Assembly (NCBI GenBank): GCA_030612405.1
Contig: JAUWNY010000002.1
Coordinates: forward strand, 1 to 36,849
Length of the DNA: 36,849 nucleotides
Direction: 5' to 3'
From: Candidatus Methanophagales archaeon
GTDB lineage: Archaea; Halobacteriota; Syntropharchaeia; Alkanophagales; Methanospirareceae
Shown here: piece after piece, positions 4,608-14,665 of the stretch
Numbering within the stretch: position 1 is the stretch's first letter
Layout: the number at the start of each line of letters is the position of its first letter
Position numbers and translations under genes: made by a program
Notes under the pieces: generated by a model
What the model saw: the letters and a program-made list of their open reading frames with translations, nothing else
Told to the model about the DNA's origin: nothing
Database searches by the model: none

Positions 4608-6137
4608 ATGCAAACTAAAACCATAGGGGAGATAAACGAAAAAATCGGGGATGGCAGTGTTCGCGTAGTAACAGCGGATAGAATGAGCGAGATAGTGAGC
4701 GAGTTAGGGGCAGAAGAAGCAGCAAAGGAAGTAGACGTCGTAACCACCGGGACGTTTGGCCCTATGTGTTCCTCAGGTGTGCTCATCAACTTCGGGCATT
4801 CCGAACCACCGCTAAAAATGCAGCGTGTGTGGCTTAACGACGTAGAAGCATATACGGGAATTGCAGCGGTAGATGCGTATTTAGGAGCAGCACAATTATC
4901 CGAGGAGAAAGGAATGGAATATGGCGGCGGGCATGCAATAGAGGATTTAGTGGCGGGTAAGCAATTAGAGATGAAGGCTATCGGCTACGGCACAGACTGC
5001 TATCCTCGTAAAGAAATAGAAACAACAATTACGCTTGACGAGGTGAATCAAGCGATAATGATAAATCCGCGGAATTCATCACAACGGCATGAAGTCGGGG
5101 CGAACTCCACGGACAGGACTTTATATACCTATATGGGCACGCTGCTACCTAATTACCGTAATGCGACTTATTGTGGTGCAGGAGCCCTTTCTCCTCTTTC
5201 TAACGACCCCGATTTCGAGACCACAGGATTGGGAACAAGGATTTTTCTTTGCGGTGCAAGCGGATATGTGGTGGGAACGGGAACGCAGCACAACCCTGCC
5301 GACCGCTTTGGAACGTTAATGGTCACGGGGAACCTGAAGGAAATGAGTACAGAATACCTCCGTGGTGCTACATTCCACAAATATGGCGTGACGCTGTATG
5401 TGGGTATTGGAATACCGATACCTGTACTGAACGAGGGTATAGCGAAGAAAACGGGAATAAGAGATGTGGATATTGTAACAGAAGTGCTTGATTATGGCGT
5501 TGGCAGAAGGGAACGACCAGTAGTGAGGAAAGTTACCTACGAGGAGTTAAAAACAGGGATGATAGAAATAGAAGGTAATGAAGTGCCAACATCGCCTCTT
5601 TCAAGTTTTTATATGGCGAAGCGAATTGCGGACGAGTTAAAGAGTGAAATAGAAGCGGGGGAGTTTTTATTGTCGCTGCCCGTAGGGCGGCTGCCAACGG
5701 ATACCGTGTTAAAGCCGATGAAACAGACAGAGGAGCTGCCTCTGGTGAAGGATATAATGATACGCGAAGTGACCACAATAAGTGAACGGGCGAGCATAGC
5801 AGATGCAGCGAAATTACTCCTGAAAACACAGACTACGCATATCCCTGTTGTATCCGCAGGGAACAAACTCGTGGGTATCGTAACCGCATGGGATATCTCA
5901 ACGGCAGTGGCAACGCAACACAGAGGGTTGGCAGAAATAATGACAAGAAACGTGATTACCGCTGATTCGGATGAGCCCCTCGAACTGGTAATACGCAAAT
6001 TGGAGAAATACAACATCTCTGCGTTACCTGTCGTGAGTAAGGATAGAAGCGTGATAGGAATGGTAACAAGCGATGAGATAAGCAAATTGATAGGTAAAAG
6101 AAGGATGAAGAGATGGCAGTGGAAATTAAGGATTTAA
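4608..6137 (+). CDS. DUF39 + tandem CBS protein: L-aspartate-semialdehyde sulfurtransferase / homocysteine biosynthesis protein (MA1821/MJ0100 family)
   Basis: VDVVTTGTFGPMCSSG, YGGGH, GTDCYPR, TLYTYMG motifs and C-terminal CBS pair. Confidence 0.92.
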   Translation: MQTKTIGEINEKIGDGSVRVVTADRMSEIVSELGAEEAAKEVDVVTTGTFGPMCSSGVLINFGHSEPPLKMQRVWLNDVEAYTGIAAVDAYLGAAQLSEEKGMEYGGGHAIEDLVAGKQLEMKAIGYGTDCYPRKEIETTITLDEVNQAIMINPRNSSQRHEVGANSTDRTLYTYMGTLLPNYRNATYCGAGALSPLSNDPDFETTGLGTRIFLCGASGYVVGTGTQHNPADRFGTLMVTGNLKEMSTEYLRGATFHKYGVTLYVGIGIPIPVLNEGIAKKTGIRDVDIVTEVLDYGVGRRERPVVRKVTYEELKTGMIEIEGNEVPTSPLSSFYMAKRIADELKSEIEAGEFLLSLPVGRLPTDTVLKPMKQTEELPLVKDIMIREVTTISERASIADAAKLLLKTQTTHIPVVSAGNKLVGIVTAWDISTAVATQHRGLAEIMTRNVITADSDEPLELVIRKLEKYNISALPVVSKDRSVIGMVTSDEISKLIGKRRMKRWQWKLRI

Positions 6138-6140
6138 AAT

Positions 6141-6158
6141 GAAAAGGTATTATATAAA
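6141..6158 (+). promoter_or_regulatory. BRE-TATA promoter of the DUF4178-pspA operon (probably leaderless mRNA)
   Basis: GAAAAGG-TATTATATAAA ending about 25 nt before ATG 6183. Confidence 0.6.
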
Positions 6159-6182: not shown

Positions 6183-6731
6183 ATGGGATTATTCGAGCGA
6201 AGTAAAAGGATACTTGAAATAAGAAAAGAAAAAAAGAAGAAGCAGCGGGGAGAGGTTAGACCAGATACCAAACCAGAAGAATTAAGAGAAGGCAGTATCG
6301 GAACGATAGATGGATTAGATTTCACCGTGCTTGGAAAGCTGGTATATGACTGGGGAGGAGGGCAGTGGGAAGAGTTCTATTTGGAGTTCTCAGACACGGA
6401 AGAGCACAAATGGTTATCAAAGGAAGGGACGACACTTGAATTACTTGACGAAGTCGAATCTGCGGATGCACCAGACCCTGATGAACTAAAAGAAGGAACT
6501 GTATTTGACTTTCAAGGGGAAAAAGTGAAGGTGAACGAAGTGGGAAAAGCAAGGATTGTCCTGGTTGAGGGGTCTTTTCCGTGGGACGTTGCTGCTGGAA
6601 CGCAGGTAACGTATGCCGATTGCGAGTTCGAGCGAACAGGAGAAATCCTCAGCTTGGAAAAGCCCGCAGGGGCAAGGCAGGAAGTATATAGGGGAAATGA
6701 ATTATCGAGGAGAAGTTTGGAAATTTTTTAG
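6183..6731 (+). CDS. DUF4178 domain protein
   Basis: G..F.V.G...Y....G.W.E.YL pattern, WLS, EGSFPW, LSLEK, YRG; first gene ahead of pspA. Confidence 0.8.
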   Translation: MGLFERSKRILEIRKEKKKKQRGEVRPDTKPEELREGSIGTIDGLDFTVLGKLVYDWGGGQWEEFYLEFSDTEEHKWLSKEGTTLELLDEVESADAPDPDELKEGTVFDFQGEKVKVNEVGKARIVLVEGSFPWDVAAGTQVTYADCEFERTGEILSLEKPAGARQEVYRGNELSRRSLEIF

Positions 6732-6743
6732 GGGTGATGAAAA

Positions 6744-7490
6744 ATGGGATTGATTGATAGGTTCTCAAATGTGGCTAAAGCGAAGATGAGCAAAATAGTA
6801 GAGCGATTTGAAGACCCGGCAGAGCAGCTTGACTACGCACACGAGAAATTGGTTGAGGAGAATAAGAGGGTGGCGGTCGCAGTGCGGGATTCAATCGCGG
6901 CGAAGAACCTGAAAAAGCGGGAATTGAACGAGGCACAGAAGAAGGTGGGCTCGGTGCACAACAAGGCGTTGGAGTACAGAAAGCGGGCGGTGGCGTTAGA
7001 GGAGAGAGTGGCGGAGTTAGAGGGCGAGAAGCGCGAGAAGGCGGAACTGCAGGTGGAGCAACTGAACAGTGCGGCGGCGCAACTGTTGGAGGAGGAGACG
7101 AGGACGAGGGAGAGAATACCGCTGCTTCAGCAGTCCGTTGCGGAAATGGAGAAGAAAGTGAGGATGCTGAAGGACAAGCAGGTGGATTTAAACGCGAAGA
7201 TCCGGCGGTTCGCGGACAAGCGAGCGGATTTAAAATCCGATTACGCGATGGCGAAGGCGAGTAAACGCGTTAACGAGGCGCTCTCGGGAATAGACGGCGA
7301 GATTAGCGACGTTGATTTGACGGTGCAGCGTATGACGGAGAAGATACGGATGGAAGAGGCAAGGGCGGAGGCATCAGCGGAACTCGGCACCGGCGCGGGG
7401 ACTGCGGACTTGGGTACAAGCGAAATCGAGCGAGAACTGAAAGTCTCAGGGTCGCTTTCCTCTCTTGACGAGGAGCTGAAGGGGAAGTGA
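6744..7490 (+). CDS. pspA: PspA/IM30 (ESCRT-III-like) family protein
   Basis: N-terminal amphipathic MGLIDRFSNVAKAK...EDP, long coiled coil, EARAEASAEL motif. Confidence 0.92.
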   Translation: MGLIDRFSNVAKAKMSKIVERFEDPAEQLDYAHEKLVEENKRVAVAVRDSIAAKNLKKRELNEAQKKVGSVHNKALEYRKRAVALEERVAELEGEKREKAELQVEQLNSAAAQLLEEETRTRERIPLLQQSVAEMEKKVRMLKDKQVDLNAKIRRFADKRADLKSDYAMAKASKRVNEALSGIDGEISDVDLTVQRMTEKIRMEEARAEASAELGTGAGTADLGTSEIERELKVSGSLSSLDEELKGK

Positions 7491-7840
7491 AGAAAATGTC
7501 GCGTGAATATTTATTAATTGGTATTTCTGGTGGCGGGACGTGGGCGTTCCCAGTGGCGAACAAAGCGGAGATATTAGATAAGATAAACGAGCCGGACAAC
7601 GAACTCGCGACTCTTAATGAACGCGGGGAGCTTGCAGAAGAGAAGTTCAACGAACTTTATCCGCAGATATTTGAACTGATAAGGTCGAGGGGGCTGCTCG
7701 TGGGTGAAGACATTGAGATGGACGAGGTGCTGGACGAAGAGGAAGTGTTTCCAAAGCCGGATTTGACACTTCCGCCTGAGGATTTGAGCTACGAGGAGGC
7801 AATTTTGGTGTTCAAGGGAGAGGGGTTGGTCCCCGGGTGA
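7487..7840 (+). CDS. PspA-associated protein, PspAA type
   Basis: I.ISGGG.W...DNEL...DLTLPPEDLSYEEA...F.GEGLVPG C-terminus; overlaps the pspA stop. Confidence 0.8.
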   Translation: MKKMSREYLLIGISGGGTWAFPVANKAEILDKINEPDNELATLNERGELAEEKFNELYPQIFELIRSRGLLVGEDIEMDEVLDEEEVFPKPDLTLPPEDLSYEEAILVFKGEGLVPG

Positions 7841-7851
7841 GGAGAAGAGAA

Positions 7852-8193
7852 ATGGCAAGGATTCAAGCTATTATAGGACTAATAAAGGATTGCAATGTGG
7901 AAAAGCTGGAAAATATAGCGTTGATGGAAGAGATGTTAGAGAAAGCGGCGAAGCTGATGGATTTGACGTTACTGAAAACTGTCAGCCATAAGTTCTCACC
8001 ACAGGGACTGACTGCGGTTGCATTGCTTGCCGAGAGCCATATCGCCGTTCATACGTATCCGGAAGAGAATTCGATATTCGTAGAGGTGATGTCATGCGGG
8101 CAGGGGGATGCGAAAAAGGTTCTGGAGCTCATGGAAGATATGCTGGGAGGTAAAGCGGAGATTGTACTGGATAAAATAATAGGAGGTGAATAA
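7852..8193 (+). CDS. speD: Pyruvoyl-dependent S-adenosylmethionine decarboxylase proenzyme (class 1B)
   Basis: HKFSPQGLT, LLAE/SHIAVHTYPE self-cleavage site, conserved SCG; RBS GAGGAG. Confidence 0.9.
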   Translation: MARIQAIIGLIKDCNVEKLENIALMEEMLEKAAKLMDLTLLKTVSHKFSPQGLTAVALLAESHIAVHTYPEENSIFVEVMSCGQGDAKKVLELMEDMLGGKAEIVLDKIIGGE

Positions 8194-8194
8194 A

Positions 8195-8632
8195 ATGGTA
8201 AATGAAATGATAGTAACGGCGTGGGTAGCACTCTTATGGCTGGTAATAGGGATAGGTCTTAGCATGCTGTTAGTGAAAGTTTACGATATTCTCGTGTTTC
8301 GAAAATTCGACTTGCAGGAAGCGATAGAAGGAAAGAATAGCGCGGTTGCGATATTTTTCAGTTTGATGTTGCTCGGCATAGGTATGGTGGTTGCGGCGAC
8401 GATTATGTCACCAGGAACCGGTTTACTGGTTCATGACATAGCTTTAACAATTGGCTGGAGCATAGGGATTTCGCTCGTTGCAACACTCCTTTTCTTCGTG
8501 TTTGATATATTATTAGTGCCGAAGATAAAACTGCAAGAGGCGATAAGTAACGGGAACATCGCGGCAGGGATACTTTCAGGTGTTGTATACGTTGCAGTTT
8601 CGGTGGTGGCAATGGCGGTGATAATAACGTGA
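8195..8632 (+). CDS. Tandem DUF350 membrane protein (4 TM)
   Basis: Two internal repeats FDLQEAIEGKNSAVAI and IKLQEAISNGNIAAGI; RBS GGAGGTGA. Confidence 0.82.
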   Translation: MVNEMIVTAWVALLWLVIGIGLSMLLVKVYDILVFRKFDLQEAIEGKNSAVAIFFSLMLLGIGMVVAATIMSPGTGLLVHDIALTIGWSIGISLVATLLFFVFDILLVPKIKLQEAISNGNIAAGILSGVVYVAVSVVAMAVIIT

Positions 8633-8649
8633 ATGGCTTCCAGGTAAGA

Positions 8650-8731
8650 AACCACGAGATTACACAAGATTAACACAGAAGAGAGAAAATAAAAAGAAAA
8701 ATCCCGTGAAAATCTGTGTAATCTTGTGGTT
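8650..8731. repeat. Inverted-arm element with 9-mer tandem arms, inside the operon
   Basis: AACCACGAGATTACACAAGATT ... AATCTGTGTAATCTTGTGGTT are near-perfect reverse complements. Confidence 0.8.
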
Positions 8732-8762
8732 ATAAATTGACACGGGAGGGATAAAAGAAGAA

Positions 8763-9707
8763 ATGGTAGCTAAAGAGGATATAGGCATATTAGCAGCTAT
8801 GGTTGTTATAGTGATACTCATTGTGGCTTCGATTCCGTTCGTTATAGGACCGCTTTTAGCACCTCCGAAATACACAGAAGACCAGCAAATAGCTCTTTCT
8901 TTAGTTTCGTACCTTGGCTATCACACGCTTGGCGACGATTCTATAGACCATTACAGTGCACAGAAGGTGCATGAAAATGGCGTTGCCGGGATAATGTACA
9001 AATATGGGAGAGAGGCGAAGGATATTGATAAAACGGTGCACGAGAAGTTAGAGGAGGTAGGTTTTGTCACAACTGCGATAGAAAGCGAGAAAAGTGGTGC
9101 ATGGGAGCCGTTCTGGGATTATTCGTGGTTCTCGGCTGCGAATGGTGATATAGTTGCTTATGTTACGACTTATTCTGATGGTCGCAGCAAATATGTTTGT
9201 ATAGCTGCGGGTTCAGACGATTATGAAGAGGAGGTATTCAAGATTCGTGCGGAAGGAAATGACTTCGTATCGTTGAGGAGTGATGTCAGGTATAAATCAG
9301 GAGAACCCGCAGAGATTGAGCACGTTGCACCTCTTGCGGGGACGATGTATGCGATAAAGTATCCTCAACACAAGTTGAGTGGACCGAGAGATGCGGCGGT
9401 GAACATAGAGGCGAGGAAGTCGTACGACGAGGTGCTTGCGCTGAAAGAGAAAGTGGCGACGAACGAAACGTTCCAGCGAGAGTTCTTCAACGTTACTGCT
9501 GATAATGAGACGGCGGCGGTAAATGATACTCGTGTAGTCAGAGAGAGAACAAGGTATTACCCCTGGGGCTTCTTTTGGGTCTGTGGTGGTGGATATGGAT
9601 ACTACTCGCCTTACAGGTACGATCGTCCCGGCTCAGGTCCTATTGTCAGGCCGAGAGGTACGGGATATACTATCCGGGGTGGGGGAGGTCCGGGGATGGC
9701 GAAGTGA
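8763..9707 (+). CDS. N-terminally membrane-anchored exported protein with Gly/Tyr-rich, DUF4247-like C-terminal tail
   Basis: One N-terminal TM helix, N-x-T sequons, C-terminus ...GYTIRGGGGPGMAK. Confidence 0.75.
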   Translation: MVAKEDIGILAAMVVIVILIVASIPFVIGPLLAPPKYTEDQQIALSLVSYLGYHTLGDDSIDHYSAQKVHENGVAGIMYKYGREAKDIDKTVHEKLEEVGFVTTAIESEKSGAWEPFWDYSWFSAANGDIVAYVTTYSDGRSKYVCIAAGSDDYEEEVFKIRAEGNDFVSLRSDVRYKSGEPAEIEHVAPLAGTMYAIKYPQHKLSGPRDAAVNIEARKSYDEVLALKEKVATNETFQREFFNVTADNETAAVNDTRVVRERTRYYPWGFFWVCGGGYGYYSPYRYDRPGSGPIVRPRGTGYTIRGGGGPGMAK

Positions 9708-9714
9708 GGGGAAC

Positions 9715-11880
9715 ATGGAATTAGCGTATCAAGCACTACAAAAATACTTTGGTTATACTTCATTTCTTCCTCTTCAAGAGGAGATCGTCAAGGATATTCT
9801 GCTAAAAAACGATGTTTTTGCCCTGATGCCAACGGGCGGGGGTAAATCTTTGTGTTATCAATTACCAGCCCTTCTTTTGGACGGTGTGACGATTGTTGTC
9901 TCACCGCTTATTGCTTTAATGAAAGACCAGGTCGATGGGTTAAAAGCAAATGGAATTGCGGCAGCATATATCAACAGCTCTTTGCGTTTTGATGAGATAC
10001 AACACATAAAATTGGAATTGCTGGAGAACAGAATCAGCATTCTTTATGTGGCTCCCGAAAGAATAATGCTACCCGACTTCTTGCTATTCTTACAGCGTTT
10101 GAATATCAGTTTGATTGCCGTTGACGAAGCCCACTGCATCTCAGAATGGGGGCATGATTTTAGACCAGAATACCGTCAGTTGAAATTGCTTAAAGAGCAT
10201 TTCCCTCAAGCTCCTTTAATTGCACTGACCGCAACCGCTATTCCCGAGGTACAAAAGGATATTATAACACAGTTAAGGCTAACCAATTCAAAGATATATA
10301 AAGCGAGTTTAAACCGGGAAAATTTATTCTACCAGGTTAAACCAAAAGATAATGCCTATCACCAATTGCTCCAGTATTTAAATTTAAAGAACCATAAAAG
10401 AGATCCAGGGATAATTTATTGTTACAGCCGTAAATCTGCCGATGATCTGGCAAATAAACTACAAAAAGACGGTTTTCGCGCTTTACCGTACCACGCAGGC
10501 TTGGGAGCTGATTTAAGGGCGGAAACGCAGGATAAATTTGTTAAAGACGATGTTGAGATAATCGTGGCAACAATAGCCTTTGGAATGGGCGTGGATAAGT
10601 CGAATATACGTTTTGTGATACATTACGATTTACCTAAAAATCTTGAGAGCTATTATCAAGAGACAGGAAGGGCAGGCAGAGACGGACTTAGAAGCGATTG
10701 CATTCTCTTTTTCAGTCATGGCGATAAGCGAAAAATAGAGTACTTCATCGAGCAAAAAGGAGATGAAACAGAAAAGCGAATTGGATATAAGAAATTGCTT
10801 GACATGGTTAATTTTTGTGAAGGCAGAACATGTCGCAGGAAAATTTTGTTGGATTATTTCGGTGAAGCGTGTAATGAAAATGAAACGAATTGCGGGAATT
10901 GCGATAATTGCCTGGAGCCGAAGGAAACGATTGATGGAACATTTATCGCTCAAAAGATCATATCGTGCGTTTCCCAGGTTCGGGAAAGGTTCGGGATGAG
11001 TTACATCGCTGATGTTTTGTGCGGCTCAAAGAGTCAAAAAATAATTTGCAATCTGCACGATACTTTAACAACTTATGGTACTGGCAAAGAATACGCAAAA
11101 AAGCAGTGGCAGGCTTTTATCAGGGAACTCGTTCAACTCGGGTATCTGAAATCGGAAGGTGACAAATACCCAATCGTAAAACTGACACCGCGGAGTCGCG
11201 ATATTTTATCCAAAAAAGAAAGGGTTTTGTTGACCAAGCCGACAGAAGAAGTTCAGATAGCGCAAAAATATTTCGATGTGGGCTTCGATCACGGTTTATT
11301 TGAAATTTTAAGAAGTTTGAGGAAGGGACTCGCTGATGCAGAGGGTATGCCACCGTATATCATCTTTCACGATTCGTGTTTGAAGGCGATGGCAACTCAG
11401 TTCCCGCGAAGTCTATCAGATTTTCGGAAGATCGGCGGCGTTGGTGAAAGCAAATTCGAGAAATACGGGGAATTATTCGTAAAAGAAATTGTTGATTATT
11501 GTAAGGAACATAATGTTGAGCCCAAAGCAATCAACGTACGCGACTATAATCCAGCACCTGGCAAAACAATGAAGACATCTACGCTGCAAGAAACACTGGA
11601 ACTTTACAAACAAAATTTAACAATTGAGGAAATCGCTCAGAAAAGAAATCTGGCAATAGGCACGATAGCATCACATATTGAAAAACTAATTTTATCGGGC
11701 GAAGAAATTTCTATTGATAAATTCGTTGATATTTATAGGCAAGAGCATATCATAAGGGCGATGTCAATTCTGGGTATCGAGAGATTAGCACCTATAAAAG
11801 AAAAGCTGGGTGATGATTATTCTTATGAAGAAATACGCCTGGTAATGGCCTCTAAAATGAGCAATCGTAAAATATCTTAG
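9715..11880 (+). CDS. recQ: ATP-dependent DNA helicase RecQ (helicase, Zn-binding, RQC, HRDC, C-terminal HTH)
   Basis: MPTGGGKSLCYQLP, VDEAHCISEWGHDFRPEY, QETGRAGRDG, CGNCDNC; true start is ATG 9715. Confidence 0.96.
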   Translation: MELAYQALQKYFGYTSFLPLQEEIVKDILLKNDVFALMPTGGGKSLCYQLPALLLDGVTIVVSPLIALMKDQVDGLKANGIAAAYINSSLRFDEIQHIKLELLENRISILYVAPERIMLPDFLLFLQRLNISLIAVDEAHCISEWGHDFRPEYRQLKLLKEHFPQAPLIALTATAIPEVQKDIITQLRLTNSKIYKASLNRENLFYQVKPKDNAYHQLLQYLNLKNHKRDPGIIYCYSRKSADDLANKLQKDGFRALPYHAGLGADLRAETQDKFVKDDVEIIVATIAFGMGVDKSNIRFVIHYDLPKNLESYYQETGRAGRDGLRSDCILFFSHGDKRKIEYFIEQKGDETEKRIGYKKLLDMVNFCEGRTCRRKILLDYFGEACNENETNCGNCDNCLEPKETIDGTFIAQKIISCVSQVRERFGMSYIADVLCGSKSQKIICNLHDTLTTYGTGKEYAKKQWQAFIRELVQLGYLKSEGDKYPIVKLTPRSRDILSKKERVLLTKPTEEVQIAQKYFDVGFDHGLFEILRSLRKGLADAEGMPPYIIFHDSCLKAMATQFPRSLSDFRKIGGVGESKFEKYGELFVKEIVDYCKEHNVEPKAINVRDYNPAPGKTMKTSTLQETLELYKQNLTIEEIAQKRNLAIGTIASHIEKLILSGEEISIDKFVDIYRQEHIIRAMSILGIERLAPIKEKLGDDYSYEEIRLVMASKMSNRKIS

Positions 11881-11964
11881 AGTTGTTTAAGTGGATGGAA
11901 AAATCTCTGTCTAATTAAAAACGTATCTGCATATTAAACTGGTAAGGATATGAATATGTGCAAT

Positions 11965-12936
11965 TTAACGTGAAGAAGATATTACCACCAGATAATCTCC
12001 TTCCTCCAACGTAATATCTGCCGTGAAGTCGAAAATAAACCTTCCCCTTTTGTATAACGCTATCACCTTTTCATTCTCACCCCGCGACATATCCACCAAC
12101 CTCGTTTTCTCGCCCACTTTTATCTGCTTCAGGTCAAACCCTTCAACCGAAGTCGAAGCATCCATAATGAAATTCACAACCACTGGCTCGGTAACCGCAT
12201 GAGCAAGTAATCTCCCGCTTAGCTCTGCATAAGATATTATATGGTCAATCCCAGCTCCACGCATCATCTCCACGTGCTCCCGCGTCTCGCATGTCGCAAC
12301 GATTTTTATACCGGGATTCAGTCTCCGGGTTGCGAGAGCAATCATTATCGTCTCGGAATCGTTCTCCAGTGGTATCATCATCGTCTTTGCATCTTCGATC
12401 CCGCATCTATTCAACGTCTCGCTCTTTGTCGGGTCTCCACTAATATGGGGTATCTCCCGCGCATTCAGCTCTGCTTGATCCAATTCGCTTCCCACCACTA
12501 AAAACTCCTCATTTTCGTTCCTTAGCTCTTTTATCGCCTCTTCTGCTTTGGTATTCCAGCCCACGATAATGGTATGCTTCTTCATCTTCACCGCCCCCGA
12601 CCCAAATAATTTTTTTAATGCACTCTTAGTAGAAAAGGATACAAGTTGTTCAATTACATACGCAATGGTTCCTATTCCCCCCAATGCAACCAGCACAAAT
12701 GTAATCCGTCCACCCATTGTTTTTGGCGTGAAATCACCGTAGCCCACGGTCGTAATCGTCACGATTACCCAATAAACGGCGTCCCATATCTCTTCTACTC
12801 CTTCACTGCCTCTTTCAAAATGGTAAAATGCTATGGAGCCGAATATGAGCACGAAAAGGAGTAGGGATAGAATCCTGAATTTATCTACGTGTCGCCTTAA
12901 AGCTCTTATCCTGTTTATCAGCCGTAGTAGTAGCAT
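11965..12936 (-). CDS. MthK-like 2-TM potassium channel with RCK (TrkA-N) domain
   Basis: Selectivity filter TTVGYGD between two TM helices; IIVGWN and GDPT RCK motifs; 1-bp gap to the upstream gene. Confidence 0.93.
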   Translation of the reverse strand: MLLLRLINRIRALRRHVDKFRILSLLLFVLIFGSIAFYHFERGSEGVEEIWDAVYWVIVTITTVGYGDFTPKTMGGRITFVLVALGGIGTIAYVIEQLVSFSTKSALKKLFGSGAVKMKKHTIIVGWNTKAEEAIKELRNENEEFLVVGSELDQAELNAREIPHISGDPTKSETLNRCGIEDAKTMMIPLENDSETIMIALATRRLNPGIKIVATCETREHVEMMRGAGIDHIISYAELSGRLLAHAVTEPVVVNFIMDASTSVEGFDLKQIKVGEKTRLVDMSRGENEKVIALYKRGRFIFDFTADITLEEGDYLVVISSSR

Positions 12937-12937
12937 C

Positions 12938-14665
12938 TTAATACTCCTTAATTATTACCGGTTTATCAATCGTATTTATAAAATGCGTATTCTCCATATC
13001 TTGTAGAAGCCACGGAGGAAGTGCGAAGAGCGAAAAATGTGTCTCTTCGCTGTACGTGTTTGTTTCGATAGCCGCTATAACAGCCGCAATCTCATCGTCA
13101 CTTATTTGCAGTGGGTCATAATGTTTGGATGCGATTGCGAACCCCCATTGCCCGAAACTTGGTATATATTGCGTATACATCCGAACAACCGGAAATCGTG
13201 ACTGTCGCAATGTATTTGCAATTATTATGTATCCGTCAGCGTCTAACGCCCAATCTGCCTGCGTAGCCTGCGTAGCCATCATTCCATCTTCATCCAGCAA
13301 AGAATAAACGTCATTATAGAACTCCAGCGAATAAAAAGTTGCGAGAATATCATTGTTGGGGTCAGGCAGGTCTAAAATAACGAGGTCGAACTTTTTACTG
13401 TCCCTAAGCGCTTCTTCTATATATTTTCTTCCGTCCATCGCCACATACTTATATCTAAGGTCTTTCCATGAATCGTTGTGTATGCTTCGCAGATATTTCT
13501 TTGATATTTCTATTACTTCGGGGTCTAAGTCCACGAGTGTTATATTTCCTATTTTGTCATCTGAGAACCTCGTTAATACTTCTAAGACGCCGAGGTCGCC
13601 ACCGCCAATGATGAGGACATCAAGATTATGTTTATGTGCGTTATTCAGTAAAGTAACTGCGGCGGGTAATACCAGCGCCTCCGAATATGGCTCATCATCA
13701 CTCTCGGATATTTGCACGCTGCCATCGAGGAACAAAACACGTCCAAGAATATCATGGTCTATTACTGTTATCGTCTGGTATCTGCTCTGTGTTCGCTCAA
13801 GGATAACCTGTCCACGATACAAATCCCCAACCGTGGTATATTCCAACTGCTCTGCCTTGTGGTAGCCCATGGCAAATAGGGAGAAAAAAAGAGCAAAAAA
13901 TATAATCACGGGAATCATCTTGTATCGATTATTTCGACGTTTGTTCTTTGGAAAGAGTGCCTTTGAAGGGTTATCAGAACTCCGAAAGAATATCATGAAC
14001 AGCGCCACACTCACTGCTCCTGTTGTATTCAGCATTCCTCCGGTGTGTACTGTCGTTATTGAGCCGAATAGGGGGATCATTATGAACCCGGCAGAAATCG
14101 CCCCTGAGACTCCTCCTATGGTATCCAGAAAATATGAATATCCGGATACTTCGCCGATTTTTTCCGTTTTGTATTTTGATAATATGTTTATGGCTACCGG
14201 GAGTTCTCCACCCATCAATACGGCGGGAACGAGCAAAATGCACGAACTGTAGAATACCAGGACATGCCATGAAGTGGGGTTGAGATTGATGAACTCGAAT
14301 GCATAAATTATTCCGTCAGTTAGCATCCATGTATCGCAAAGTGCGAGTCTCCTCGTGACTGGCACGATAACAAGAGAAATAAGGGCAATAAGCATTTCTA
14401 AGATGAAGAGCAGGAGGAATGGATTCTTGGTTCTATCAGAGAGTTTGCCGATGACAAGGCTTCCAACTGCGAGACCGCCCATTATCGAAGCTAAAACTAT
14501 CGAGCCGGAATAAAAAGAAGAGCCGAGAAGTAGTGTAAATTCCCTTAAAAGGACGACTTCGTAGATCATCGCTGCTGCTCCGGTAGAAAGCAGGGTTATT
14601 GCAATGACAATGAATACGGCTCTGTGATGCCCATTTACTGTCATAGTGTTATGTGCATGATGCAT
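12938..14665 (-). CDS. speE: Polyamine aminopropyltransferase (spermidine synthase) fused to an N-terminal ~7-TM MFS-like domain
   Basis: Hydrophobic N-half; LFLDGSVQ, LIIGGGDLG, VDLDPEVIE, DLPDP, IPSFGQWGF; start may be 14644. Confidence 0.9.
   Translation of the reverse strand: MHHAHNTMTVNGHHRAVFIVIAITLLSTGAAAMIYEVVLLREFTLLLGSSFYSGSIVLASIMGGLAVGSLVIGKLSDRTKNPFLLLFILEMLIALISLVIVPVTRRLALCDTWMLTDGIIYAFEFINLNPTSWHVLVFYSSCILLVPAVLMGGELPVAINILSKYKTEKIGEVSGYSYFLDTIGGVSGAISAGFIMIPLFGSITTVHTGGMLNTTGAVSVALFMIFFRSSDNPSKALFPKNKRRNNRYKMIPVIIFFALFFSLFAMGYHKAEQLEYTTVGDLYRGQVILERTQSRYQTITVIDHDILGRVLFLDGSVQISESDDEPYSEALVLPAAVTLLNNAHKHNLDVLIIGGGDLGVLEVLTRFSDDKIGNITLVDLDPEVIEISKKYLRSIHNDSWKDLRYKYVAMDGRKYIEEALRDSKKFDLVILDLPDPNNDILATFYSLEFYNDVYSLLDEDGMMATQATQADWALDADGYIIIANTLRQSRFPVVRMYTQYIPSFGQWGFAIASKHYDPLQISDDEIAAVIAAIETNTYSEETHFSLFALPPWLLQDMENTHFINTIDKPVIIKEY

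Follow-up and report, generated by a model that had tools for sequence, protein, structure and literature searches.

The gene cluster at positions 6183-14665 of a 36,849-nt stretch of DNA (the window; contig JAUWNY010000002.1, assembly GCA_030612405.1) from an uncultured, methane-oxidising Candidatus Methanophagales archaeon is interpreted, with a probability of roughly 0.55, as a conserved accessory envelope module in which a membrane-remodelling system built on PspA is coupled to aminopropyl transfer at the membrane. The cluster joins a six-gene operon, which includes pspA and speD, with a convergent pair of genes for a membrane-fused aminopropyltransferase (fused SpeE) and a K+ channel, and represents the ANME-1 (Methanophagales) variant of an already published bacterial module. 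It is not a new kind of system and rather sharpens an open question: the acceptor used by the products of the thousands of membrane-fused SpeE genes has been open since the fusion was first described, and the travelling of PspA systems with polyamine genes is equally unexplained.

Genes were identified by Pfam profile searches with curated cut-offs, complemented by NCBIfam profiles. Nine genes occupy the locus, seven on the plus strand and two, convergent to them, on the minus strand. Together with two non-coding features they are arranged as follows:

6150-6157, plus strand: TATA-like box TTATATAA, 26 nt before the ATG of the DUF4178 gene, with a purine-rich GAAAAGG upstream
6183-6731, plus strand: DUF4178 protein, 182 aa (PF13785, 82.3 bits against a cut-off of 25, E 4.7e-23)
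6744-7490, plus strand: PspA/IM30 of the ESCRT-III superfamily, 248 aa (PF04012, 47.3 bits against 33.9, residues 3-242)
7487-7840, plus strand: PspAA, 117 aa (PF22743, 31.7 bits against 27)
7837-8193, plus strand: SpeD, proenzyme of class 1b S-adenosylmethionine (SAM) decarboxylase (PF02675, AdoMet_dc, 93.4 bits against 25)
8186-8632, plus strand: integral membrane protein of the DUF350 (YjfL) family, 148 aa (PF03994, 81.2 bits against 26)
8645-8737, no strand: palindromic hairpin element resembling repetitive extragenic palindromic (REP) sequences or miniature inverted-repeat transposable elements (MITE), from repeat matches and folding
8763-9707, plus strand: X314, open reading frame (ORF) of 314 aa outside any known family (no Pfam or NCBIfam match)
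9715-11880, plus strand: RecQ helicase with RQC, HRDC and HTH_40 domains (TIGR01389, 772.7 bits)
11965-12936, minus strand: K+ channel with two transmembrane (TM) helices and an RCK domain (PF07885, Ion_trans_2, 67 bits; PF02254, TrkA_N, 80.3 bits)
12938-14665, minus strand: fused SpeE, seven TM helices followed by a SpeE domain, 575 aa (PF01564, Spermine_synth, 112.3 bits, residues 342-515)

Each gene named in a preliminary description of this DNA was recovered at its place with its family assignment above the Pfam cut-off, the 314-aa protein having no family. SpeD also clears the equivalog model TIGR03330 (86.9 bits against 75.65), and its translation marks a putative active proenzyme, with a Glu-Ser self-cleavage site in LAESH and SCG downstream, motifs taken, respectively, to hold the self-processing residues and the His and Cys expected further on. 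The channel carries the selectivity filter TVGYGD and has the features of RCK-gated two-TM K+ channels of the MthK type; fused SpeE additionally matches NF037959, "fused MFS/spermidine synthase" (60.8 bits against 40), where MFS stands for major facilitator superfamily. The description of the DUF350 gene as a double one needs correcting: there is a single 148-aa ORF matched once by the Pfam model, its length equalling two DUF350 half-units; some bacteria make DUF350 as two separate genes of 64-85 aa. The five leading genes are tightly packed, with a 12-nt gap followed by overlaps of 4, 4 and 8 nt, and the speE and channel genes are spaced by 1 nt, the channel start following the speE stop codon. 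The earlier description of the locus is right, except that the 130-nt gap between DUF350 and X314, the hairpin element lying there and RecQ had been overlooked. The TATA-like box noted before, with its purine-rich stretch, was found again; it is likely to be the promoter of the six-gene operon, its aligned position being A/T-rich in most of 12 relatives, and its spacing implies a predicted leaderless or near-leaderless transcript. Profile searches of the cluster ORFs (6183-14665) revealed no ATP-grasp, DUF2617, DUF1190 or DUF2491 gene. The lack of an ATP-grasp gene, noted before, thus holds for this interval, since every ORF in it was assigned to other families.

The six-gene operon (DUF4178 to X314) and the speE-channel pair belong together. 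Among 41 genomes of relatives, DUF4178 was detected in 13 and a close fused SpeE (66-95 % identical) in 11, all of which are among those 13; the two DUF4178-positive genomes without fused SpeE are 64 % and 69 % complete. A wider sample of the phylum (301 genomes) contributed six more operon-bearing genomes, four with fused SpeE, one with just part of it, cut off where the contig ends, and one (G074) with none detected. In total, the operon was found in 19 genomes and fused SpeE in 16 of these, with both halves sharing one contig in six. The two units hence do co-occur among relatives, a point on which the preliminary description had made its reading depend, and the outcome favours that reading. 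The order of the six genes is conserved wherever the contig is readable, two other families included, and in genomes G017 and G236 the halves converge directly on each other without RecQ. Directly behind speE lies the channel gene, without exception in the 15 distinct archaeal loci of the clade and also in five bacterial loci.

The same core recurs in bacteria. DNA around relatives of fused SpeE, sampled as one genome per species, was annotated with iterated profiles, and a core locus was defined by fused SpeE together with DUF350 and/or DUF4178. This definition applies to 59 loci, 53 of them bacterial, from Clostridia, Bacillales, Bacteroidota, Campylobacterota, Gammaproteobacteria and Gastranaerophilales among others. 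DUF350 adjoins fused SpeE in most of the 59, and subsets of the core loci also possess SpeD, PspA (16 bacterial loci) or the channel directly behind speE (the five loci mentioned above). The module accordingly crosses the divide between bacteria and archaea with its core intact, and the earlier recognition of an archaeal version of the bacterial neighbourhood of PspA, DUF350, DUF4178, SpeD, fused SpeE and K+ channel is borne out. The word "complete" applied to it then needs some qualification: the expected DUF4247 lipoprotein is replaced by X314, which shares just the C-terminal tail with it, and PspAA occupies the place that a CesT/Tir-like gene has in bacteria and in an Archaeoglobus-like archaeon.

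According to Ravi et al. 2024 (PMC11237479), bacterial CesT/Tir-PspA operons of a "second group" (e.g. AAN56744-47) encode a 7TM-spermine/spermidine synthase fusion, DUF350, DUF4178 and a lipoprotein, and were proposed to monitor polyamines or to perform "aminopropylation of other substrates", for which Li et al. 2019 is cited; PspAA is named there from archaeal PspA-PspAA pairs, e.g. AAM04874.1. The present locus shares with this group the fused multi-TM SpeE, DUF350, DUF4178, PspA and an outer membrane-anchored protein. The locus differs in carrying PspAA after PspA instead of a CesT/Tir-like gene before it, in including SpeD and an RCK K+ channel, in having as outer protein an orphan without Pfam match, in its archaeal host and in the splitting of the module into two convergent units. 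The "third group" of the same text comprises E. coli yjf-type and actinobacterial variants with the PspA-like YjfJ, DUF350, a K+ channel, a glutathionylspermidine-synthetase-like ATP-grasp protein, DUF4247, DUF2617 and AdoMet decarboxylase (AdoMetDC). DUF350, an RCK-type channel, AdoMetDC and a tail-bearing outer protein are common to both, whereas the ATP-grasp ligase is missing from the cluster, in which aminopropyl transfer rather than ATP-dependent amide ligation is predicted. DUF4247 and DUF2617 were also observed next to fused SpeE, in a Halanaerobiales locus. A bacterial MFS-SpdSyn fusion accompanied by class 1b AdoMetDC and DUF350 is said to have been described by Li, Kurihara, Kim, Liang and Michael in 2019 (Biochem J 476:2579); fusion-bearing bacteria reportedly contained no spermidine, and the fusion reportedly did not complement an E. 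coli speE mutant. The idea of an acceptor other than putrescine reportedly goes back to that work. The functional-looking SpeD, paired with membrane-fused SpeE and DUF350, would agree with that bacterial case; here the pair accompanies PspA-PspAA, and its distribution among archaeal relatives was counted.

The idea put forward in the preliminary description, that the enzyme would aminopropylate an ether-lipid headgroup or a surface protein, is essentially this published hypothesis carried over to an archaeon. No description of the ANME-1 cluster was found in the literature searched, which included passages of PMC13197434 and PMC13385816, although the supplements of Ravi 2024 and Li 2019 may list archaeal examples. 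New here are the use of PspA-PspAA for CesT-PspA, the tail common to X314 and DUF4247 proteins, four membrane carboxylates in fused SpeE and the prediction of an outward-facing catalytic domain.

An exchange of the PspA partner argues for a functional rather than a historical link to PspA. A single PspA match, that of the cluster, was obtained in the own genome (G000, a draft of 183 contigs, 85 % complete). In a careful tree with paired support values, PspAs of the cluster type group together (100/100), with the PspAs of canonical archaeal PspA-PspAA dyads as their sister group (98/95). As in these dyads, PspAA directly follows PspA with overlapping stop and start codons; unlike the cluster, canonical dyads stand alone, 12 out of 12 having no other module gene within about 3 kb. 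A CesT-like match is absent from the cluster according to profile searches, and PspAA sits after PspA instead. An Archaeoglobus-like locus (L023), by contrast, possesses a CesT_Tir_1 gene (E 1.4e-34), and its PspA groups with bacterial CesT-type PspAs, whereas its fused SpeE falls into one clade with those of ANME-1 (support 100, quick tree). The SpeE and PspA trees thus disagree, which indicates that the aminopropyl core stayed while its PspA partner was exchanged. Recruitment of a PspA of different lineage to the same module supports a functional tie between the two. In the quick tree, the archaeal fused SpeEs form a clade of their own on a long branch, where long-branch joining is possible; a recent transfer of fused SpeE from the sampled bacteria is not supported.

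Of the 301 phylum genomes, 99 encode PspAA, which makes it common. In clusters of the present type it is long and divergent (117 aa, 27-38 bits; canonical forms 91-94 aa, 96-120 bits), and within the ANME-1 family 12 genomes have the canonical PspAA only, nine the cluster form only and none both. ANME-1 genomes that carry the module have no PspA system besides it, which makes it a strain-variable trait of a little-known envelope. The DUF4178 protein has no hydrophobic helix, and its basic, K/R-rich N-terminus (MGLFER...) resembles that of its PspA neighbour (MGLIDR...); a cytoplasmic location is inferred. In other PspA-containing loci, too, stand-alone DUF4178 proteins open with a short amphipathic, basic motif similar to the one of the neighbouring PspA, and those of PspA-less loci start with Cys-x-x-Cys pairs or TM helices.

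Fused SpeE consists of seven hydrophobic helices, resembling half an MFS transporter, ahead of a catalytic domain; its homologues start at the second Met (residue 8). The AlphaFold2 model (pLDDT, i.e. predicted local distance difference test, 87) superimposes in its catalytic half on solved SpeE enzymes with a template-modelling score of 0.83-0.84 on the target and a root-mean-square deviation of 1.9 Å, and this half is 33-34 % identical to a Pyrobaculum enzyme (sequence match E 9.5e-40); at the level of the model, the SpeE fold of the domain is confirmed. The catalytic sites of both SpeD and SpeE are intact as far as sequence can tell, with the GGGD loop and D432 and D435 of the D-L-P-D-P motif invariant in 49 fused homologues (23-93 % identity). 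Folds and catalytic motifs are those of canonical soluble SpeD and SpeE, from which the present enzymes differ by the 7-TM domain, by the predicted placement of the catalytic domain outside and by their accessory distribution. The spermidine synthase equivalog cut-offs are not reached (TIGR00417, 164 against 249.6; PRK00811, 194 against 260). Four carboxylates within membrane helices (E36, E90, E154 and D181) are likewise invariant in the 49 sequences. The membrane domain is therefore a conserved functional part rather than a simple anchor, and its buried carboxylates would be compatible with a cation path, possibly for polyamine or decarboxylated SAM.

In the proposed mode of operation, SpeD would provide decarboxylated SAM in the cytoplasm, and fused SpeE, probably a dimer in which two half-MFS domains together constitute the cation path, would use it at the membrane, the candidate acceptor being an amine outside the bulk putrescine pool. 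The catalytic domain would most likely reside on the outer face, on the same side as X314 and its predicted outer tail. DUF350 may be a further membrane subunit, forming together with the tail protein the membrane partners of SpeE. DUF4178, PspA and PspAA would sense or stabilise the membrane from the cytoplasmic face, and the co-translated RCK channel could balance charge or membrane potential.

Several observations weigh against this coupling of PspA to aminopropyl transfer, and some of them would suit ordinary polyamine synthesis, in which SpeD and a tethered SpeE act as a spermidine or aminopropylagmatine synthase, placed beside PspA since polyamines lend stability to membranes and nucleic acids during stress. 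The speD and speE of the locus are the only AdoMet_dc and SpeE matches in the own genome, and both acceptor-site aspartates typical of free-diamine enzymes are retained and invariant along with the other catalytic residues. The best matches among solved structures are broad-specificity SpeE enzymes of archaea and thermophiles. An arginine decarboxylase (PdaD) and an agmatinase-family gene are encoded in the own genome, so that ordinary synthesis is chemically possible. Canonical short SpeE occurs in five of the 41 relatives, the fused form in 11 and both together in none, and such mutual exclusion is the pattern expected from functional equivalence. Further points on this side concern other parts of the argument: fused SpeE was undetectable in G074 (91 % complete) despite its six-gene operon, and the halves are not adjacent in G027, G019 and G008. 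The outward orientation of the catalytic domain is a reading of sequence rules, and we know of no precedent for decarboxylated SAM outside the cell. In favour of the coupling, each of the nine genes is covered by metatranscriptome contigs from three studies, with 90-99 % identity to the window (a 2144-nt contig spans DUF4178 to SpeD and a 1953-nt contig PspAA to X314); as contigs of related strains, they document presence in RNA libraries rather than transcript structure or level, and DNA carry-over is possible.

Ordinary synthesis is nevertheless considered unlikely. Both SpeD and SpeE are absent from 15 of the 41 relatives, eight of which are at least 90 % complete, while 39 of the 41 retain deoxyhypusine synthase, including all eight near-complete genomes without SpeD and SpeE. 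DUF4178 occurs in only 12 of the 301 phylum genomes, ten of them of the ANME-1 family. With many relatives lacking SpeD and SpeE and DUF4178 rare in the phylum, the module is accessory, patchy and dispensable in this lineage. A bare anchor would require neither four invariant membrane carboxylates nor a strict association, in bacteria as well as archaea, with DUF350, DUF4178 and an outer protein that bears a tail. The reported lack of spermidine in fusion-bearing bacteria and of complementation in E. coli would point the same way. The preliminary description had treated a sole housekeeping spermidine synthase as the case that would speak against it; the enzymes are indeed the only SpeE and SpeD of the genome, but a housekeeping role is unlikely given the 15 relatives that lack both genes.

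Other aminopropyltransferase-related genes were encountered among the relatives. G016 and G018 carry a canonical, adjacent speD-speE pair without this module. Longer SpeE-like membrane fusions of 767-791 aa (24-30 % identical, without DUF4178) are encoded on G003:C273 (L013) and G030:C147 (L014) and represent a different kind of fused aminopropyltransferase. SpeD-like genes, some with frames of about 360 aa, occur in genomes without SpeE (G014, G021, G022:C19, G029, G033, G036 and G039); they may be SpeD-derived arginine or ornithine decarboxylases of the kind described in PMC10407285. The deoxyhypusine synthase of the own genome (G000:C132:1668-2627) gives two separate profile matches (positions 1-88 and 87-287) inside a single 371-aa frame, as if some 29 residues had been inserted; G002 and G007 of the genus show this split as well.

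A second alternative, likewise unlikely, is coupled synthesis and export, i.e. a cytoplasmic catalytic domain producing free polyamine, which the 7-TM domain with DUF350 would export to the surface while the K+ channel compensates charge and PspA guards the membrane during the flux. The invariant membrane carboxylates would suit the path of a polycation, and translational coupling of speE and channel in 15 of 15 archaeal loci, with adjacency in five bacterial ones, is also in line with it. Acidic tails found in many of the core loci without a match to the Gly-Lys tail pattern (see below) could hold polycations outside, and decarboxylated SAM would not be required outside the cell. The distribution of charges, however, places the catalytic domain on the other side of the membrane: across 15 diverse sequences, 137 Lys and Arg residues were counted in the N-terminus and loops 2-3, 4-5 and 6-7, as compared to 35 in loops 1-2, 3-4 and 5-6. 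By the positive-inside rule, the basic loop preceding TM helix 7 is inside and the catalytic domain, consequently, predicted outside. The topology of MFS proteins leads to the same outward reading for the NF037959 match, which corresponds to an N-domain plus one further helix. An orientation with the N-terminus in and the C-terminus out is therefore moderately favoured on these sequence grounds.

Coupling of PspA to aminopropyl transfer could in its most specific form involve the outer protein itself. X314 begins with a TM anchor, continues with an alpha/beta domain at about residues 40-172 and a stretch rich in Gly and aromatic residues, and finishes with the C-terminal sequence RGGGGPGMAK. 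No Pfam or NCBIfam family was found for it even at E values of up to 10, and its own family is tiny, with four representative proteins among 1.84 billion scanned; a homologue adjoins DUF350 in the Archaeoglobus-like locus too. The structural model is poor (pLDDT 51, six sequences). Its core aligns with DcrB (Z 9.7, root-mean-square deviation 3.3 over 109 residues), and DcrB, PA1624 and PsbP/Mog1-like proteins score at Z 7-9.7, values within a commonly seen range that no more than hint at an alpha/beta domain of periplasmic type. The bacterial gene in the position of X314 codes for a lipoprotein or a TM-anchored protein, some of which match DUF4247 (E 1e-10 to 7e-12). In Clostridia, a tail-bearing outer domain is fused via one TM helix to DUF4178; a K-rich stretch flanks this helix towards DUF4178, which would locate DUF4178 inside and the tail domain outside.

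X314 and these bacterial counterparts all end in a Gly-rich tail closed by Gly-Lys. When the 6882 ORFs of the fetched loci were scanned for a Gly-rich, Lys-ended tail, 37 displayed it and all 37 are cluster genes. With a Gly run near the end and no requirement for the final Lys, 45 ORFs were retrieved, comprising 35 Lys-ended ones, all cluster genes, and ten unrelated others. The background in the own genome amounts to three of 4754 ORFs. The pattern was not found in 22 of the 59 core loci, two of which end in near-variants; many of the remaining 20 encode a DUF4178-like protein with a TM helix and then an acidic C-terminal tail, so that the module would have two types of tail. Such strongly acidic tails, ending for example in Asp/Glu runs, were noted in the bacterial loci L045, L047, L050, L051, L055, L057, L059, L067, L071-L073, L086 and L089. 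Set against the outer lipoproteins (DUF4247 or Ctha_1186 type) of the bacterial module, X314 agrees in position, anchor and tail, and a Pfam match is lacking. X314 is not counted as a DUF4247 member, as the profile-profile alignment covers five tail columns only (probability 1.9 %) and no relationship is detectable between the globular parts; X314 would rather be a positional analogue of the bacterial DUF4247 lipoproteins that shares their tail and anchor.

External aminopropylation of the invariant C-terminal Lys of X314/DUF4247-type tails, with the half-MFS pair passing decarboxylated SAM outward, is quite improbable as a specific proposal. If true, it would entail a hypusine-like N-epsilon-aminopropyl-lysine on a surface protein, with PspA, PspAA and DUF4178 reading or repairing the membrane from inside and the channel offsetting the moved charge. 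A complex prediction for the SpeE catalytic domain and the X314 tail yielded a score of 0.00 (mark 0.32), which speaks neither for nor against the proposal. The outward catalytic domain, the membrane carboxylate path and the Lys-ended tail as candidate acceptor are predictions offered for cultured bacteria.

A chance neighbourhood, with the speE-channel pair having nothing to do with the pspA operon that it abuts, is highly improbable: RecQ and the repeat element between or inside the units, their separation in G027, G019 and G008 and the lone operon of G074 could be cited for it, but it is contradicted by their co-occurrence (16/19 one way, 11/11 the other), by the contiguity of the same genes in bacteria and by the residence of SpeD, useless without an aminopropyltransferase, in the pspA operon while the only SpeE lies in the other unit. 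In G074, a genome of another family (locus L105; G074:C35, 500-4400), the six-gene operon converges not with speE and the channel but with putative oxidative-stress genes, which, judged from translations alone, are possibly of catalase, rubrerythrin, flavodiiron and rubredoxin type.

Two intervening elements are set apart from the module. RecQ, of bacterial type, starts 7 nt after X314 and is wedged between the two convergent sub-operons. It is intact in four genomes (G020, G004 and G010 among them), a remnant in G002 and G022 and missing between the sub-operons of G017 and G236. Being whole, remnant or missing at the same spot among relatives, RecQ is a variable insertion, as read from these sequences, and is probably not part of the module. 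The hairpin element of about 90 nt has arms of about 30 nt and 54 matches in its own genome, where paired arms spaced by about 100 nt are frequent; its folding energy of -29.2 kcal/mol (z -6.0) was equalled by none of 200 shuffles. Related strains carry different letters at the site, and the gap measures just about 65 nt in L004. From its sequence, the element looks like a member of an ANME-1 repeat family of REP or MITE type; it does not belong to the conserved module. Near 8731, at its 3' end, it shares letters with a TATA-like TTATAAAT.

On either side of the cluster lie ordinary genes with no relation to it, coding for a CooC-like ATPase, a CBS-domain homocysteine-biosynthesis enzyme, an MGMT-like DNA-binding protein, a DUF6612 lipoprotein and a Mut7-C RNase. 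The homocysteine-biosynthesis gene (HcyBio, two CBS domains, 4608-6137) is located directly upstream of the operon. Its product is on the route to methionine and SAM, and four genomes of the genus keep gene and operon side by side (L004, L005, L100 and L102), which is at least synteny.

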